Assembly: GCA_036514355.1 (NCBI GenBank)
Contig: DATBXI010000063.1
Span: forward strand, 1 to 24,119
From: Desulfuromonadaceae bacterium
GTDB taxonomy: Bacteria > Desulfobacterota > Desulfuromonadia > Geobacterales > Pseudopelobacteraceae
Direction: 5' to 3'
Length of the DNA: 24,119 nt
Every line of letters begins with the position of its first letter. Positions within the stretch are counted from its first letter, which is position 1. Made by a program: the position numbers and the translations under genes. Under the pieces are notes generated by a model, which saw only the letters and a program-made list of their open reading frames with translations, was not told the DNA's origin and searched no databases. Of the stretch, positions 6,053-17,570 are shown one piece after another.

Positions 6053-6148
6053 ATAAAAAAAAGGATTTATGTTGAATTGATATGTAACTGACAGTTTAAC
6101 GCATTGCTACGTGTTAATACGTGTTACTTGACAGGACAGGAGGCTTCA

Positions 6149-7474
6149 ATGAAAAAACTGCTTTACCGATTCTTCCCAGCACTATTCCTGCTGGCCCTGC
6201 CCGCCGTTGGTCAGGCGGACACCGCGGTCGATTCATCCACCCTGTTACGTTTTTCCCAAGACAGCCGGCCCGGCTTCTCCACAAAGACGTTTGTGCCAGC
6301 TACCCAGTTTTTGGGCCTCGATGTTGACAAGCTGGGGGATGGCAAGCTTTCCGTGCACCTCTACGGATGGGGACGTGTGGATCTGGCTGACAAGAGCTTC
6401 AACGACAAGCAGACGGGTGGCAGCCTGACCTACGCCTATGCCCAGTACCGCTTGGACCAGGCCAACGGTCAGGTCCGGGTCGGCCGTTTCTTTGTCAATG
6501 AAGGGATAGTCAACGAGCAGGTGGACGGTCTGCATGTGCGCACCGACCTGCCGATGGGGTTCGGCATCTCCACGTTCGGTGGCGCCACGGTCCACACCGC
6601 GCACCAGCTGGGCCTGGGGACCGACGGCAAGGGGGACGGCATCGTGGGTGGCCGTCTGAACTACCGCTACAAAGGGATGCTGGAATTGGGGTTGTCGGGT
6701 GTCTATGAAAGCAACGCGCCCACCGTCAATGATCCCCGAGTGTCCAGTATATTCAGCAGCCACAGGCTCATCGGCGGCGATGTCTGGCTCTCCCCGCACC
6801 GCATGGTGGAGATCATGGGGCACACCAGCTACAACACGGAGACCGACGGTGTTGCCGAACACAGCTACATGCTCAATATCAAGCCAATCGCGCACTTGGT
6901 CCTGACCGGCGAATTCAACGAGCACCGCGAAGCGAACCTGTTCTCCAGTTCGCTCCTCTTCGCCACGTTCGTTCAAAATCTGAACGAACGGTCCCGCTCG
7001 GCAGGGGGCAGCGCTTCCTACGAGTTGAACAAGATGACGGAGGTCGCGGCTGATTACAAACATTACAGCCGTGACATAGGGGAGGCCGACCGCTTCGGTG
7101 GAGATGTGCGCTTCGCGCTGATGGACAAGCAGGTGCGCACCGGCGTCGGTTATCACTATCTGAGGGCAGGTACGAATTTCGCGATAGCCGGCACGGCTTC
7201 CGGCTCGTTCCATGAGGTCCACGGCTACGCCCTGCAGGATACCAAGACCTATATGGCCTCCCTGGACGCCATCGCCTATATCTTTAAAGAAAATATCAAC
7301 AATAAATCAAGCGCCTGGGAGTTTACCGGGTCCCTGGGCTGGCATATTTCCCCGGCCCTGATCCTGTCCGGCGATCTCGGCTACGGGAAGAACCCGCAGT
7401 TTGTTGACGATCTGAAAGGATTGTTACGCCTTACCTACAACATGAATTACACCGGAAAAGGAGGCACGAAATGA
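6149..7474 (+). CDS. Outer-membrane beta-barrel porin of a porin-cytochrome conduit (ExtB-like)
   Basis: AGGAGG RBS and ATG 6149 (track start 6104 is too far upstream). Signal peptide ending GQA-D, many amphipathic aromatic-rich beta strands, and an ATGA overlap with the cytochrome gene. Confidence 0.85.
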   Translation: MKKLLYRFFPALFLLALPAVGQADTAVDSSTLLRFSQDSRPGFSTKTFVPATQFLGLDVDKLGDGKLSVHLYGWGRVDLADKSFNDKQTGGSLTYAYAQYRLDQANGQVRVGRFFVNEGIVNEQVDGLHVRTDLPMGFGISTFGGATVHTAHQLGLGTDGKGDGIVGGRLNYRYKGMLELGLSGVYESNAPTVNDPRVSSIFSSHRLIGGDVWLSPHRMVEIMGHTSYNTETDGVAEHSYMLNIKPIAHLVLTGEFNEHREANLFSSSLLFATFVQNLNERSRSAGGSASYELNKMTEVAADYKHYSRDIGEADRFGGDVRFALMDKQVRTGVGYHYLRAGTNFAIAGTASGSFHEVHGYALQDTKTYMASLDAIAYIFKENINNKSSAWEFTGSLGWHISPALILSGDLGYGKNPQFVDDLKGLLRLTYNMNYTGKGGTK

Positions 7475-9145: not shown

Positions 9146-9544
9146 TTACTTTTCAACCCGTATGCCCGGAATAAAATGTATCGCTGCAAAGGTCTTGTTG
9201 AGCGTTTTACTGGTGAAGTTCACCATCGGCGGTGTGTCCGGATATTCGATCTTATCGCCTACCGCGACCTTCATCTGAGGCATGGCCAGCCACGTTTTCT
9301 CCCCTTTGTCGTCGGCTGCCTCCACATAGGTGTACCCCGCGGCGTTCATGGTCTGGGTGATCTTGCCTTTTTTGCCGGCACCTGCAGGGATCTCCTGGGC
9401 TTTCATGCCTGCATGGGGATCTCCCACGCCGGGTTGTGCAGGGGCCGCGGCGGGTTTCTGAGGTGCCTCAGCCGCAGGTTTGTTCTGGCAACCGGCAAGG
9501 GCGATCGCAGCGATCGAAAGAAGCGTCAATATGGTGTTTCGCAC
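9146..9544 (-). CDS. Lipoprotein, NrfJ-related / OB-fold-like
   Basis: GTG 9544 with AGGAGG RBS (track start 9643 is too long). Lipobox LAG-C, Pro/Ala linker, and the domain GKITQTMNAAGYTYVE...TWLA...MVNFTSKTLNKTF, which I recall from NrfJ-related proteins. Confidence 0.65.
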   Translation of the reverse strand: MRNTILTLLSIAAIALAGCQNKPAAEAPQKPAAAPAQPGVGDPHAGMKAQEIPAGAGKKGKITQTMNAAGYTYVEAADDKGEKTWLAMPQMKVAVGDKIEYPDTPPMVNFTSKTLNKTFAAIHFIPGIRVEK

Positions 9545-9863
9545 GGAGAACCTCCTGATTTTTGATTGTATACAAATACCATAAAAGCACTTGAATATCC
9601 AAGGAAAAAGTACGGCCCTCTCCGGGCCTGAACGCTCTCCCATTGCCGTTTTTCAGCTACAGGTAAATGCTTCGCCATGCAATAAAGTGAGTGAAAAAAA
9701 TGATGGTTTTATCGTATGATGGTTTAATTGGTGAGCATGTGGTGAAACTCCAATGGTTAGCTGTGGGTAACTATACTGTACACCCCGTTTCCGGCGTCCA
9801 TAGCGCTGGCATTTCCCTCGTACCTGCAGTTGTATGAAATGTCTGTTTGATGGTCGAGTCACA

Positions 9864-11042
9864 ATGAACACATATTTTCGCAAAATACGCCTGTTGACCA
9901 TCTGCCTCGTGTGCTCAATTCTGGCGCATATCTTTGTTGTGTACGCGCTGAGGCTGTTCGGGACCTACGATTTCAGCGCACCTGTGAGTCAGCCCCCGGG
10001 AGTGACCGTCGAATTGGCCAAATCAACCGATGCCGCTCCCGCAGAAGAGAATGCCGAGAAACAAGAAAACGACGCAGTCCAGGAAGACGACACCAGCGTG
10101 AAACGTCCGCTCCCGGTCCAGGAAGATGACGGCAGCACGGTGTCCGAGTCCGAACCGGAACCGGCGGAGATGCCGATCGTGAGAAGGGATAAGGTTGTCT
10201 CCCCACAGGCCGAAAAAGCAACCGCCGGCGCTCTGCCAGCCGGAGCATCTCTTTCCAAAGCCGCGAGTCAAACTCCCCCTCCATTGAAGGCAGGGGACTT
10301 TCTGGGGGCGCAATTCGAAAAGCTCACCTACCAGATAACCATGCTTGGCATACCCATAGGAAACGCCGAACTTGAAGCGAAGTACGAGAACGGAGAGACT
10401 TCGATCACGCTGAGAGTCAAATCAAATGCCGCAATCTCTAGTGTTTTTCCGGTTGACGATGTTGTCGAAACCCGTCATCTCGACGGCAGGTTCATCATGA
10501 CGAATGTAAAACAGCGAGAGGGCGACTTCAGGAGTGATGAGATGTTTGCCATCAACCCAGGGAAAAAATCGGTGTCCTGGATGGACAACATCAGGGGGCG
10601 CAGCCTGAAAATGCCGCTTCCCACCGACGATGTGCTCGACACTCTATCGGGTATCTATTACCTCAGGAAACGTCAGCTGCAGGTTGGCCGGACGGAAACT
10701 CTCCACATCTACGACAGTGAGACATATGCGGATGTGCCGGTTGAAATCCTGTCCCGGGAGGAAATGCGCCTTCCTAATCTCACGAAGGTCAATGCGCTGG
10801 TTGTCCGCCCGCTCCAAAAGACGGCGGGCATTTTCAGGCGAACAGGGGATGTCCTGATCTGGATGACTGACGATGATCACAAAGTGCCGGTAAAAATCGT
10901 CACCTCCATCGCTCTCGGCAAGGTGACGGCCGATCTTGTGTCAGCCGAATCGAAACCCTTTGATGCAGAGCCCAAGGACACATCCCGGTTGATGCAACAT
11001 GCTGACACCACACCACCACGGAATGGAACCGCCCGCCGGTGA
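9864..11042 (+). CDS. Membrane-anchored DUF3108-domain protein
   Basis: N-terminal TM, acidic/Pro linker, and a C-terminal EKLTYQITMLGIPIG...DTLSGIYYLR...IWMTDDDHKVPVKI domain. Likely start ATG 9864 with a weak RBS. Confidence 0.75.
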   Translation: MNTYFRKIRLLTICLVCSILAHIFVVYALRLFGTYDFSAPVSQPPGVTVELAKSTDAAPAEENAEKQENDAVQEDDTSVKRPLPVQEDDGSTVSESEPEPAEMPIVRRDKVVSPQAEKATAGALPAGASLSKAASQTPPPLKAGDFLGAQFEKLTYQITMLGIPIGNAELEAKYENGETSITLRVKSNAAISSVFPVDDVVETRHLDGRFIMTNVKQREGDFRSDEMFAINPGKKSVSWMDNIRGRSLKMPLPTDDVLDTLSGIYYLRKRQLQVGRTETLHIYDSETYADVPVEILSREEMRLPNLTKVNALVVRPLQKTAGIFRRTGDVLIWMTDDDHKVPVKIVTSIALGKVTADLVSAESKPFDAEPKDTSRLMQHADTTPPRNGTARR

Positions 11043-11075
11043 ATGGCACAAGCCCCATCTCCTGAAGGATTCCCC

Positions 11076-11615
11076 ATGCTTCACAATAATTCACTACGCA
11101 GAATACTGGTGGTGCTCATCGCCCTCATTGTCTCTGGGTGTGATACAAAACAGGACTTGCAAACAGGGGATTCCGCCCCAGAATTTTCAGTATCGGACAT
11201 GCGTGGCGAACGGATTCGTTTGAGCCAGTTCAAGGGCAAAATCGTTGTCCTGTATTTCTGGCGGAATTCGTGCTGTAGTGATGGCTTGAAACGTATCGAA
11301 CCGCTGTATCGCGCAAACAGACACAATAATTTCGAGATAGTGGCGGTAAATGGCGGCGACACCAAAGAGGCTGTTGCAGCGTATGCGAAGAGCAACGGAT
11401 TGACGTTTGCTATGGTGCCGGATGAACAGTTGATGCTGGTGAATCAGTATCACGTCATCGGGTTTCCGACGATTTTCATACTGGACAAGCATGGTCTTAT
11501 CCGCGAAAAAATCATGGGCGCGGTACAAACCGAGCAACTGGAGAAATTACTCCAACGCCAGTTCGGCATCCAGAAAGCGGCTGAGGCTGCATATGAGAAG
11601 ACCCATGTCCATTAG
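11076..11615 (+). CDS. TlpA/ResA-like thioredoxin-fold lipoprotein with vicinal CC instead of CXXC
   Basis: Lipobox VSG-C. APEFSVSDMRGERIRLSQFKGKIVVLYFW, cis-Pro loop GFPT, FILDKHGLIR. The active-site region reads FWRNSCCSDG. ATG 11076 follows GAAGGA. Confidence 0.85.
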   Translation: MLHNNSLRRILVVLIALIVSGCDTKQDLQTGDSAPEFSVSDMRGERIRLSQFKGKIVVLYFWRNSCCSDGLKRIEPLYRANRHNNFEIVAVNGGDTKEAVAAYAKSNGLTFAMVPDEQLMLVNQYHVIGFPTIFILDKHGLIREKIMGAVQTEQLEKLLQRQFGIQKAAEAAYEKTHVH

Positions 11616-11697
11616 ATCCTTTATGTGGCCGGCACGTGCGGATGTGGGTCTGAAACGCTGCTGCGATGGACGAATACACGTACAAGGGGATGAGTAA

Positions 11698-12075
11698 ATG
11701 CTGCTGCAAGCTGTAATCTGGATGAATCTCGCGCTTGTTTTCTACACGTGGGCCGTGTTCAGCGGGCGAAAACAGGGATTGCACCGGAAGCATCTGATTA
11801 TTTTCGGCATCGGCCTGGCGTGCGATTATCTTGGTACCCACCAGATGAACCTGTTCGCCCATACCTACGGCAAGGCGCCCGAATGGCACAACATCACCGG
11901 CATCGCTTCGTTGGGTGGGATGGCTTTTCACTTTATGCTGGCGCTCGTCGCTTCCCTGGCGAACAAAGCGGAAGCGGTCAACCGCATTTTTCACCGCGTC
12001 AGCCTGAGCATCTATACCTGCTGGCTGATTGCCTTTTTCAGCGGGGCCATCTCCGGCATGATGCGCATGCGGTAA
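11698..12075 (+). CDS. HsmA-like (TIGR03987-type) 4-TM membrane protein
   Basis: LALVFYTWAV, HLIIFGIGLACDYLGT, HNITGIASL, FHF.LA and FHRVSLSIY.CW match the HsmA pattern, including the conserved His residues. Confidence 0.7.
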   Translation: MLLQAVIWMNLALVFYTWAVFSGRKQGLHRKHLIIFGIGLACDYLGTHQMNLFAHTYGKAPEWHNITGIASLGGMAFHFMLALVASLANKAEAVNRIFHRVSLSIYTCWLIAFFSGAISGMMRMR

Positions 12076-12156: not shown

Positions 12157-13632
12157 TCAGTAGCTCTTGAACACGTCCGTGGTGAAGTGCATCGGCATCT
12201 CGGAGCCGGAGAAATCGAAATGCTCGCCATGATCCTTCATCATCAGTCTGAATGCGCTGAGCATGTAGCGCCGCTTGAATCCATCCTCCAGCGCAACGAT
12301 CTCCTGCACCTTCTCGCTATAGAATTTCATGTAGCAGGTCCCCAACGCCTGGGTGATCTCATCCATGGACATTTCGTGGGGTTCCACAATGGGTGTTACC
12401 AGGTTGTATTTCGAGTAATCCCACACCCTGATGCGGTCCTTCATCTCCTTGAAGAGCGGCGTGAAGGGCATGGGAGTCACCACCGGGAAGACGGCGATGT
12501 CCGGGTTCAGGTATTTCGCCGACTCGATGGTGCTGTCTATGGAGTCCCACGTTTCGTTGGGGAAGCCGATCATGAACGACGCCTCGGTGATGATACCTGC
12601 ATCACGGCACAGGTCCAGGGCCTGTTTGTTCTGTTCGAAACTGGTTCCTTTGTTGAGGCTGTTCAGGGTGTCCTTATCGGCGCTCTCTGCGCCGATATAG
12701 ATGTGGATGATGCCGGCATCCCGGTATTTATGCAGGATATCCGCATCCCTGATGATATCCTCGACCCGCGTCTCGATAAGGAGGCGGACGCCGAAGTTCC
12801 GCTCGATCAGAAGATCCAGGAACAGTTCCCAGCGATCCCGGTGTTTTGTCGGATAGGCATCGATAAGGGTGAAATAGCTGATGTTGTAGGTTTCGATCAG
12901 GTGAGCCATTTCTTCGATGACGTTTTCCGGTTTTCGGCAGCGCCAGTCTTCGCGCCAGAACATCCGCTGGCTGCAAAACGCGCATCCCATGTCGCAGCCG
13001 CGGGAGGTGAGGATGGAGGCCATCCTGCCGTTCGGCTCGACAAGATACCGGTAGTCCTCCCAGTCCAGCAGGTGCCAGGCCGGTTTCAATGAATCCAGCT
13101 CCACGATGTGCGCCTGGTTTTCGTTGCTGATGACCTCCGTCCCCTCACGGTAGGCGATCCCTTTGACGCTTTTCCCCGTCCCCTCCGGGATCGCGGTGAG
13201 CAGTTGCTTCAGGGTATGCTCCGGCTCTCCCTTGATGATGAAATCCACGTTGCTTTTCTCATCTCCCGGGGTTTCCAGAATCTCCTGGTACATGAACGTC
13301 GGGTGCGGTCCGCCCAGCAGCGTCACGATGGCGGGATTCACCTGTTTGGCAACGTCGAGGATCTTGAGGGCATCGGGCACCGTCGCGGTGCTGATGGCCC
13401 CGGTAACGGGGAGATAGTCGAGCGTCATGACGAAGTCGGGCTGGTACCGCTCTATTTCGGCGCGGATATCCTTAAACGAGAGCTTCTTGTTCATGGCATC
13501 GAAGATCCGTGCCTCGTGGCCGGCTTCAAGCGCCGCACCGGCCAGGTACGCCAGATGCAGCGGAGGCCAGGTTCCGACGACCTGCACGCCCCAGCAATGG
13601 TATGGCGCTGTTACGAAAAGAATCTTGCTCAT
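12157..13632 (-). CDS. B12-binding radical SAM protein, BchE-like (paralog 1)
   Basis: N-terminal cobalamin-binding-type domain (WPPLHLAYLAG, LGGPHPTFMY). CxxxCxxC RGCDMGCAFC at 12973-12996. TRVEDIIRDADILHKYRDAG and DYSKYNLVTPI match the BchE family. Confidence 0.9.
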   Translation of the reverse strand: MSKILFVTAPYHCWGVQVVGTWPPLHLAYLAGAALEAGHEARIFDAMNKKLSFKDIRAEIERYQPDFVMTLDYLPVTGAISTATVPDALKILDVAKQVNPAIVTLLGGPHPTFMYQEILETPGDEKSNVDFIIKGEPEHTLKQLLTAIPEGTGKSVKGIAYREGTEVISNENQAHIVELDSLKPAWHLLDWEDYRYLVEPNGRMASILTSRGCDMGCAFCSQRMFWREDWRCRKPENVIEEMAHLIETYNISYFTLIDAYPTKHRDRWELFLDLLIERNFGVRLLIETRVEDIIRDADILHKYRDAGIIHIYIGAESADKDTLNSLNKGTSFEQNKQALDLCRDAGIITEASFMIGFPNETWDSIDSTIESAKYLNPDIAVFPVVTPMPFTPLFKEMKDRIRVWDYSKYNLVTPIVEPHEMSMDEITQALGTCYMKFYSEKVQEIVALEDGFKRRYMLSAFRLMMKDHGEHFDFSGSEMPMHFTTDVFKSY

Positions 13633-16022: not shown

Positions 16023-17570
16023 TCAGCCTTTGTCCCTCCTCATTTCTTGCATCTTTGCCGGTATCTTGCCGAGCATGCCGATTCCCAGTTTTTTCATGAC
16101 AAAGGGGCTTCCCATGAACAGCTTGGTGATGCGCATCAGATAGTCACGCCTGAAGGTCGCTTTCATGGTCATGAATTCTATGATCTTGCCCATGTAAAAG
16201 CGGCGGTAGCAGTCCGCCTGTGCCACTTCGACCTGAAGCATGCTCATGCCGTGGGGTTCGAGGACGGGATCGACCATGTTGTATTTCCCGTAATCGTTGA
16301 TCCGGATATGGGGCTTTAGCTCTGCGTACTCGTCAGAATAGGGCCACGGGGTGTAGATCAGGAAGTTGGCGATATCCGGGCCGTACTGCTGGACCAGCTG
16401 CATGGTCCTCTTGATGCTCGCAGGGGTCTCGTCGGGAAACCCCAGCATGAACGATGCCTCGGATACGATCTCCTGCTCGTGGAGGAGCTCGAAGACCTGT
16501 TTGACGTCTTCTATGACGATCCCTTTTCTCATCGCGTCGAGGAACGCCTGGTCTGCGGCCTCGACCCCGATGGAAATATAGATGATCCCTGCCTTGCGAT
16601 ACTTCCCGAGGATGTCCTTGTCCCGGAGTATGTCCGACCCCCTGGTTTCCATCAAAAGATGAACAGGTATCTCCCTGGCGATGATTGCGTCGAGTAGGGC
16701 CTCCCAATGCTCCCGGTTTCTGGTGGGGTATTCATCGGTAATCAGGAAGGCATTGACGCCGTACCGGGAATACAGGTGCTCCAGTTCGTCGGCCACCTTC
16801 CGGGGGTCACGGGCGCGCCAGGACTTCTCCCAGAACCGTTGCTGGGAGCAGAATACGCAGTCATGGTCGCAGCCGCGGGAGGTGCTGATGGCTCCCAGGC
16901 GGGAACCGGGGATCGCCAGGCAGGTGTAGGTGCTCCACTCGAGGAGATCCCATGCCGCCGGCAGATCGTCGATGCATTCCAGCAGGGGACGCCGGGCGGT
17001 CGTCATTACCGCTCCATCGCGGTTGCGGAAGGCAAGCCCCGGAACCGCGGCAGGATCGCCGCCGGCTTCCAGGACCTCCAACAGGTGCCGGAGGGTGGCC
17101 TCCCCCTCACCGACAACGATGTAGTCGATGGCGGATGACTGCCCCAAGACCTCTTCATACATGAAGGTGGGGTGCACCCCCCCCAGAATGGTGACGGTGT
17201 CCGGCCTGACGCTCTTGGCAAGCTCCAGGGTTTTGGCGGCGTCGTTGATGGTGGCGGTCATGGCGGTGGTGGCGACATAATCTACCCGGGATTCACGCAG
17301 GCGGCGCTCAATGTCCGGATATCCATGCCCCATGGCCATGGCGTCGTAGATCTCGGCGCCCACGTTCGCCTGGCGGGCGGCGCCGGCAAGATAGACCATG
17401 CCGAGCGGTATCCAGCGGCCGGCAACTTCATCGATGCCGCTATGATAGGGGGGAGTCACAAAGAGGATTCTGCTGGGGGGGGCTGTCGTTCCTGTCCGGG
17501 TTTTTCCTGAAGGGGTACTAGTTGTCATCGGTATCCAAATATTACCGTATAATTTTACACACTTTACCAT
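16023..17570 (-). CDS. B12-binding radical SAM protein, BchE-like (paralog 2)
   Basis: PPYHSGIDEVAGRWIPLG, LGGVHPTFMYEEVL, DYIVVGEGE, CxxxCxxC RGCDHDCVFC at 16848-16871, YTPWPYS. Start is 17570 (AGGGG RBS) or 17528. Confidence 0.9.
   Translation of the reverse strand: MVKCVKLYGNIWIPMTTSTPSGKTRTGTTAPPSRILFVTPPYHSGIDEVAGRWIPLGMVYLAGAARQANVGAEIYDAMAMGHGYPDIERRLRESRVDYVATTAMTATINDAAKTLELAKSVRPDTVTILGGVHPTFMYEEVLGQSSAIDYIVVGEGEATLRHLLEVLEAGGDPAAVPGLAFRNRDGAVMTTARRPLLECIDDLPAAWDLLEWSTYTCLAIPGSRLGAISTSRGCDHDCVFCSQQRFWEKSWRARDPRKVADELEHLYSRYGVNAFLITDEYPTRNREHWEALLDAIIAREIPVHLLMETRGSDILRDKDILGKYRKAGIIYISIGVEAADQAFLDAMRKGIVIEDVKQVFELLHEQEIVSEASFMLGFPDETPASIKRTMQLVQQYGPDIANFLIYTPWPYSDEYAELKPHIRINDYGKYNMVDPVLEPHGMSMLQVEVAQADCYRRFYMGKIIEFMTMKATFRRDYLMRITKLFMGSPFVMKKLGIGMLGKIPAKMQEMRRDKG

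Follow-up and report, generated by a model that had tools for sequence, protein, structure and literature searches.

What might explain a thioredoxin-fold lipoprotein in which the two active-site cysteines stand side by side? The CXXC motif is near universal in thioredoxin-fold oxidoreductases, and the effects of loop length have mostly been studied in engineered mutants. The stretch of DNA analysed here (24,119 nucleotides of Desulfuromonadaceae bacterium, contig DATBXI010000063.1 of assembly GCA_036514355.1; henceforth the window) contains a gene for a TlpA/ResA-like lipoprotein, P0001, that carries a vicinal pair, Cys66-Cys67, at the position of CXXC (Table 1). By fold and domain content P0001 is an intact TlpA/ResA-like redoxin that lacks the family-defining CXXC. 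Its CC pair is an old and selected trait of one clade of the order Geobacterales, and the CC-type TlpA-like protein is an undescribed natural variant, not a broken gene. What the pair does is a matter of graded probability: we tentatively favour thiol-disulfide exchange through a destabilised vicinal disulfide, and weigh it below against a role in soft-metal handling and against several less probable alternatives.

Residues 31-144 of P0001 match the Pfam family AhpC-TSA (1.9e-21, 76.7 bits; cut-off 26), and Redoxin (51.9 bits; cut-off 26.6), Thioredoxin_8 (44.3 bits; cut-off 27) and Thioredoxin_2 likewise score above threshold. The best solved relatives are ResA proteins, with HMMER E-values of 1.6e-20 for 4nmu and about 2e-17 for Bacillus subtilis ResA. 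The NCBIfam model of the ResA subfamily, NF002854, gives 102.1 bits, under its cut-off of 170, and NCBIfam holds no specific model for P0001. HMMER aligns residues 24-160 with residues 5-143 of 4nmu, and the sole gap is the two residues between the cysteines ('nsC..Csdg' against 'twCkpCeke'). A MAFFT alignment of 85 single-domain relatives places an identical gap and preserves the hydrophobic register of helix 1 (I74, L77, Y78). Cys66 and Cys67 are thus adjacent where TlpA/ResA-like redoxins have CkpC or CepC. An AlphaFold2 model built from 14 homologs has a mean predicted local distance difference test score (pLDDT) of 83.8, and Foldseek aligns it with 4nmu and 1st9 at template modelling (TM) scores of 0.87-0.90, by target, with root-mean-square deviations of 1.6-2.0 Å; the predicted architecture is a thioredoxin fold of the ResA type. 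The model shows a short helical turn at residues 64-67, separated by a break from a helix of residues 70-81. The putative cis-Pro loop, G129-F130-P131-T132, was identified by sequence alignment, and its P131 and T132 are invariant in the alignment of close homologs (A1). The first-pass annotation of this DNA had placed the pair, within FWRNS-CC-SDGLKRIEPLY, exactly to the letter; it had also proposed a clean in-frame loss of the two X residues, flanks that stay in register once these are deleted, and an intact fold with its cis-Pro GFPT loop, and the alignments and the model bear out each of these points.

Other families with paired or reactive cysteines were considered and set aside. A peroxiredoxin of the BCP/PrxQ type is contradicted by the absence of PxxxTxxC from FWRNSCC and by a score of 39.7 bits against NF006960, which has a cut-off of 140. 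A Sco/SenC copper chaperone would have CxxxC and a distal His; the motif here is CC, SCO1-SenC is not among the Pfam matches, and the His-bearing tail is variable across the CC clade. Adjacent cysteines serve as ligands of soft metals or metalloids in ArsD, MerT and the C-terminal tail of MerA, and ArsD has a thioredoxin-like fold. Unlike these proteins, P0001 has neither an ArsD nor a Mer family among its Pfam matches at E <= 0.01, and no mer or ars genes were seen nearby; an ArsD-type metallochaperone is further disfavoured by the lack of a third Cys near the pair.

How widely is the CC pair conserved? A word-indexed search returned 13 homologs at 51-89% identity, and YFWxNSCC[GSA][DE]xLK is found in all but one of them, P0010, which has Cys-Phe and comes from a 663-nucleotide metagenome contig. 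In the A1 alignment all 14 close homologs have C66, and 13 of them also have C67. An exhaustive search of representative sequences recovered the same two-residue-deleted CC in many further single-domain proteins, down to about 33% identity, followed by a few CXC forms and then by ordinary FWATWCxPCxxEMP proteins; the multi-domain matches were all CXXC. We also surveyed 201 sampled genomes of the Geobacterales, of which 75 had a match at 1e-25, and read 50 loci. CC is present at 40 of the 41 loci with a profile E-value of 1e-45 or lower, and the exception, L047 (1420-1992), is the Ser-Ser second copy of a genome with a CC gene as well. Matches near 1e-35 at the loci read are ordinary CXXC paralogs of the FWATGCxACVAGMP type, and a sample of 401 genomes of the phylum outside the order yielded only CXXC relatives at 1e-30.

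The CC proteins form one clade, with Shimodaira-Hasegawa-like approximate likelihood ratio test (SH-aLRT) support of 95, 99 and 98 in three tree builds, and in a 25-member alignment the two cysteines (C67 and C68 in P0003 numbering) are the only clade-specific invariant residues. In comparisons of the gene with ten orthologs, synonymous sites are saturated at a nonsynonymous divergence (dN) of 0.23-0.40, and the two estimable ratios of nonsynonymous to synonymous divergence (dN/dS) are 0.08 and 0.10. Because the pair is conserved across the clade under purifying selection over saturated synonymous divergence, it is an old, selected trait and neither a strain lesion, nor decay, nor an assembly error. 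The first-pass annotation had argued against decay, and that argument holds; the comparison with homologs that it called for shows CC conserved as a subfamily, and the close homologs are not CXXC, which excludes the strain-specific lesion or sequencing error that it had allowed for.

The vicinal pair is not confined to a single origin. CC arose separately in the small P0049 group, likewise through deletion. P0091, P0110 and P0153 make up a separate small clade with FWxxCC, which reached a vicinal pair independently: Cys has replaced the Trp that precedes the first Cys, the second Cys of CXXC is gone, and nothing has been deleted. Forms with selenocysteine as the second residue (CU), which a remark by Haft on a redoxin family had brought to mind, were looked for and rejected: the loci read carry CC, and the in-match TGA, checked for L032 only, is the natural stop. 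In the source databases the homologs are named 'TlpA family protein disulfide reductase' or 'peroxiredoxin', annotations that need qualification for CC proteins. Our literature searches found no report of a vicinal-cysteine thioredoxin-fold oxidoreductase, of a CC subfamily, or of 'vicinal disulfide' together with 'thioredoxin fold', and nothing relevant that links NosL, FtsX and thioredoxin. A preprint by Haft notes that CXXC motifs rarely contain additional cysteines and that these point to a changed function (10.1101/2022.07.06.499078).

What do the CC proteins work with? Beside about a third of the orthologs lies a recurrent gene module in which the CC-TlpA gene precedes one or two NosL genes, a single-pass protein of about 104 residues, an FtsX permease, an ATP-binding cassette (ABC) ATPase and a 333-residue protein. 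Four of five metagenome or genome contigs have NosL immediately downstream, usually with an overlap of about 22 nucleotides; 13 of the 40 other CC genome loci have it there too, and so does L057, a CGC locus. Two subtypes of NosL gene occur, both with an invariant CxxCGM. The 333-residue protein is polytopic and has the invariant motifs GAMCxVGT, S-C-C-G and H-C-P-F, the second of which is also a vicinal pair. Neither Pfam nor NCBIfam has a model that fits it, and its Atlas entries are hypothetical proteins of anaerobes only. NCBIfam likewise holds no specific model for the protein of about 104 residues or for the NosL genes. The module can be seen at L006:5687-9806, and also at L003, L004, L067 and L097-L109. 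The 333-residue membrane protein occurs in 115 of the 201 sampled genomes of the order, and in 32 of the 38 genomes with CC-TlpA against 83 of the 163 others, a hand count uncorrected for relatedness that is a hint only. A periplasmic CIPC thioredoxin is encoded upstream of the copies in L003, L018 and L020, and CcdA upstream of those in L003 and L026; at L018 and L020 CcdA was assigned from blastp clustering only. Distant CC members have related surroundings. The cluster around P0030 comprises the module and CbiM together with three NosL genes, a further CC-TlpA and a TonB receptor. P0049 (L065:1-10501) follows an FtrD-like plus YHS (FetA-like) protein, two FtsX proteins and an ABC ATPase, and precedes a further set of the module's small protein (here 114 residues), FtsX, ABC and membrane protein (344 residues; S-S-C-C-G, H-C-P-F), and then FeoA, FeoA and FeoB. 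A predicted complex of CC-TlpA (A4, 24-180) with its adjacent NosL (A3, 24-152) scored 0.00 in a run without controls, which speaks neither for nor against an interaction.

The TlpA-like slot of this module is not reserved for CC proteins. We took 13 regions where lower-scoring TlpA matches lie within a few kb of the 333-residue membrane protein gene, and found the same module in them. With L057 and L060 counted in, a CXC TlpA-like protein occupies the slot at seven loci (L057, L097 and L103-L107; for example YFWTDACGCAEQL), and a CXXC TlpA-like protein at eight (L060, L098-L102, L108 and L109; FWAGGCSSCKEEMPAM), where its gene is often convergent with that of the membrane protein. The tree resolves three separate module-linked clades, CC (SH-aLRT 98), CXC (100) and CSSC (97, or 88 with L108). 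In genome G101 both occur, CC as a stand-alone gene and CXC within the module, and CXXC TlpA-like proteins adjoin NosL elsewhere in the phylum too. Evidently a TlpA-like thiol protein is required in the module, and any of three cysteine spacings is tolerated. With CXC or CXXC TlpA-like proteins in the same slot of other genomes, CC seems to close a natural CXXC, CXC, CC series.

In the light of this series, P0001 may well be a functional thiol-disulfide exchange protein with a destabilised vicinal disulfide, a proposal that we make tentatively. Exchange would have been retained in P0001, because proteins with the classical CXXC or with CXC, a spacing known to be redox-active, take the place of CC proteins in the module. 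The attacking thiolate would be Cys66, which lies opposite the cis-Pro loop at the N-terminal end of helix 1. The mixed disulfide would then be resolved by Cys67, through a strained vicinal disulfide with an eight-membered ring. Potentials of -130 to -200 mV are cited for redox-active CXC sites, both within thioredoxin folds and outside them, and thioredoxin itself acquires a higher potential when one residue is deleted from its loop (PMC3173608). From this trend of CXC sites towards oxidising potentials it follows that further contraction to CC should give a still less stable disulfide. The resting state would then be the dithiol, and the protein would act as an oxidant or an isomerase-like exchanger and not as a strong reductant. 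Likely clients would be cysteines in partners that handle metals, NosL or the 333-residue membrane protein for instance. The CcdA or CIPC thioredoxin genes that adjoin some CC copies speak for this reading, as does the placing of P0049 at the FetE/FetF position described below.

Several observations weigh against exchange chemistry in P0001. A vicinal disulfide at a thioredoxin-fold active site is unprecedented. Residues 61-70, which include the pair, are modelled with moderate confidence only (mean pLDDT 80, with flanks over 90). The CC clade contains natural variants without one or both cysteines, namely P0010 and L047. About two thirds of the orthologs, the window copy included, lie away from the NosL/FtsX/ABC module, and the membrane protein of the module was not found in this genome (G000), the assembly of which is 87.7% complete. 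The neighbours found elsewhere, NosL, YHS and the membrane protein with S-C-C-G, would fit a metal relay equally well. Of the functions that the first-pass annotation had offered, distinct redox chemistry and metal binding are both favoured, as far as gene neighbourhoods can tell, by the recurrent NosL, ABC and Cys-rich membrane protein context.

The main rival, to which we give a lower probability, is that the pair serves as a soft-metal ligand or relay. Cu(I), or a different thiophilic metal or metalloid, would be bound by both adjacent thiolates and passed between NosL-type CxxCGM proteins and the S-C-C-G / H-C-P-F-C site of the membrane protein, with the vicinal pairs of MerT, the MerA tail and the arsenic chaperone ArsD as parallels. 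NosL belongs to a Cu(I) chaperone family and is translationally coupled downstream in many orthologs, the invariant GAMCxVGT, S-C-C-G and H-C-P-F of the membrane protein would suit such a relay, and distant CC members sit beside YHS/FtrD-like, FeoAB, TonB-receptor and CbiM genes. Repeated CC/CU motifs across one system mark heavy-metal handling, according to the Haft preprint, and that argument can be applied here (10.1101/2022.07.06.499078). The same holds for the recurrence of the pair, vicinal CC having arisen at least twice more in TlpA-like lipoproteins, in the P0049 group and in the 'CCxx' group of P0091, P0110 and P0153. However, the acceptance of CXXC, CXC and CC in one slot agrees better with exchange chemistry than with a single fixed metal geometry, no third ligand is conserved across the clade, in which the His-bearing tail is dispensable, and the CcdA and CXXC thioredoxin beside some copies point to redox cycling.

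Chemistry centred on one cysteine, with Cys66 as a persulfide or sulfenate carrier or a peroxidase-like thiol and Cys67 as an accessory that protects or tunes it, would agree with the best Pfam match being AhpC-TSA, with the 'peroxiredoxin' label that one source gives to a homolog, with the retention of the first Cys only in P0010, and with the rhodanese genes that flank two orthologs. It is nevertheless quite improbable: all 25 clade representatives keep the second Cys, the peroxiredoxin motif is absent, as noted above, and the relatives in the module carry two cysteines in CXC or CXXC spacing. Hardly likely, too, is a redox-inert descendant, either a scaffold or binding protein or, for the stand-alone copy, a relic of the module. 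The Ser-Ser and Cys-Phe copies could be read this way, as could the widely varying surroundings of stand-alone copies and the failure to find the module in this genome, as far as it was searched. Such a descendant would not be expected to show strong purifying selection with both cysteines invariant over saturated synonymous divergence and an equally invariant cis-Pro loop, and the Ser-Ser protein is a second copy in a genome that has kept its CC copy. The least likely of these readings is a specialised cytochrome c maturation reductase for heme-binding motifs with unusual cysteine spacing, a version of which the first-pass annotation had suggested for widely spaced heme-motif cysteines. The closest solved relative, ResA, is a cytochrome maturation reductase, a membrane protein of the heme-linked HsmA family adjoins the gene, and a multiheme cytochrome with a weak CxxxxCH-type Pfam match is encoded 2 kb upstream in the window. 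Yet the cytochrome context is repeated at none of the other ortholog loci examined, no Ccm or Ccs family is among the 25 most frequent families in a tally of 99 flanking open reading frames (ORFs), and ordinary CXXC TlpA paralogs that could serve maturation are kept in the Geobacterales. The shortened loop should, moreover, weaken and not strengthen reducing power. The suggestion of a heme-motif reductase is therefore not upheld.

How does P0001 compare with characterised systems? It shares with ResA, TlpA and CcmG (PDB 4nmu, 1st9 and 1jfu) the fold, including the ResA-type insert, at 30-34% identity, as well as a membrane anchor, a periplasm-facing location, FW...C at the start of helix 1 and the cis-Pro loop. 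It differs in its CC, produced by the two-residue deletion, and in the replacement of the E-M-P that follows the motif by L-K-x-x-E-P; unlike the characterised proteins, the CC proteins have no conserved link to cytochrome maturation genes. FetE and FetF of the Campylobacter jejuni fet cluster are also TlpA-like and membrane-associated, and their genes come after those of a YHS-domain membrane protein and an FtsX-type ABC transporter; the paper on them mentions CXXC and describes FetE as a poor reductant and FetEF as promoting oxidation in extracts (PMC10783030). A Fet thioredoxin sequence matches P0001 at 1.9e-9, and the CC member P0049 occupies the FetE/FetF position in its own cluster. The Fet cluster serves FetMP iron uptake, whereas P0001 lies outside any such cluster.

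The CXC oxidoreductases (the CGC mutant of thioredoxin, YphP and CsgC) resemble P0001 in their shortened dithiol loop and, for some, in the thioredoxin fold, and are redox-active with an oxidising potential, by the figures given in PMC3173608. They keep one residue between the cysteines, and none of them is a TlpA-type lipoprotein. Natural CXC TlpA-like proteins share the module slot with CC proteins. We know of no characterised vicinal form. The module itself recalls NosDFY-NosL, which delivers copper to nitrous oxide reductase, in combining NosL with a mechanotransducing ABC system in the envelope. In contrast to that system, the permease is of the FtsX/MacB type and not NosY, no NosD or NosZ was found in the loci read, and the module has two further components, a Cys-rich membrane protein and a TlpA-like protein.

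It is conceivable, if doubtful, that the CC pair gives the thioredoxin fold a catalytic device of a distinct kind, kept by selection: either a strained disulfide switch of high potential, or a bidentate site for the hand-off of Cu(I) that matches the S-C-C-G of the membrane partner. It would then be the endpoint of a CXXC, CXC, CC tuning series in one envelope metal-handling module. If so, the CC proteins would be a new functional class of TlpA-like proteins. Three natural spacings in one operon slot make the tuning of loop length directly testable with natural proteins, and the CC proteins offer a handle on an uncharacterised module of NosL, FtsX/ABC and a Cys-rich membrane protein in the Geobacterales, the metal physiology of which is of wide interest.

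Table 1. Features of the P0001 gene and its neighbours in the window
Feature	Position	Strand	Basis
Coding sequence of P0001, 179-residue CC-type TlpA/ResA-like lipoprotein (stop codon included)	11076..11615	+	ORF and translation
Likely ribosome-binding site GAAGGA, 8 nucleotides before ATG 11076	11063..11068	+	sequence
Predicted signal peptide and lipobox V-S-G-C (Cys22 = TGT 11139-11141), Asp at +2	11076..11141	+	sequence
Vicinal Cys66-Cys67 (TGC 11271-11273, TGT 11274-11276) at the CXXC position	11271..11276	+	sequence, alignments
Putative cis-Pro loop G129-F130-P131-T132 (GGG TTT CCG ACG)	11460..11471	+	sequence; aligned to the ResA 'lPT' loop
Long C-terminal helix (predicted), conserved tail QKxAExxYEKxHxR	11529..11612	+	AlphaFold2 helix 152-176
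DUF3108 protein, upstream neighbour, 33 nucleotides before the coding sequence	9834..11042	+	Pfam DUF3108, 3.2e-23
125-residue HsmA-family membrane protein, downstream neighbour, at 83 nucleotides	11698..12075	+	NCBIfam TIGR03987, 91.7 bits (cut-off 78.2)
B12-binding radical S-adenosylmethionine (SAM) gene, convergent, after HsmA	12157-13632	-	Pfam
Second B12-binding radical SAM gene	16023-17570	-	Pfam
165-residue predicted lipoprotein	9146-9643	-	
456-residue ORF	6104-7474	+	

The window copy, single in this genome, is a stand-alone member of the CC clade. No CcdA or CIPC thioredoxin gene is present in the window. The NosL genes of the genome are on two other contigs, C155:1-2526 (L008) and C229:1777-5109 (L009); they are of a different subtype and do not lie beside an FtsX/ABC module. 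On C155 just 12 nucleotides precede the NosL start, too short a stretch to show any upstream CC-TlpA. The NosL-family genes of L008 and L009 (CxxCGM and CSLHC) adjoin genes for exported proteins with an LGERxYREG stretch, which, by that stretch, are taken to be cytochrome-like.

Around the P0001 gene, the downstream neighbour belongs to a family named after the heme-sensing membrane protein of Clostridioides difficile, a two-component system lies between the two B12-binding radical SAM genes, and the 165-residue predicted lipoprotein and the 456-residue ORF match no Pfam or NCBIfam family above threshold. A conserved operon with DUF3108 and HsmA was considered and rejected, as the arrangement recurs in one other genome only and with the TlpA gene on the opposite strand. 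In that genome (G124, locus L040), DUF3108, HsmA (93.6% identical) and radical SAM (89%) genes surround a CC-TlpA gene (1450-1983), the product of which is 43% identical to P0001 and belongs to a different subclade; the comparison of L040 with 9834-12075 of the window suggests a replacement or an inversion at the DUF3108-HsmA slot. The flanks of 29 ortholog loci are otherwise heterogeneous.

As for the gene itself, the homologs start at the Met equivalent to ATG 11076 in the A1 alignment, and a second in-frame ATG, at 11043, would merely extend the signal peptide. Cys22 and its GCDTKQ context are nearly invariant (alignments A1 and A4), and the signal peptide and lipobox predict an extracytoplasmic, membrane-tethered protein, as expected of TlpA/ResA-like redoxins. 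In the C-terminal tail Y173 is invariant and H177 nearly invariant in A1. The tail is missing from many other members of the CC clade, and so is not tied to the CC motif. The residue after the lipidated Cys is Asp23 (11142-11144), as in most clade members. In Escherichia coli, Asp at +2 retains lipoproteins in the inner membrane, and by analogy Asp23 would hold P0001 there, near ABC or CcdA-type partners.

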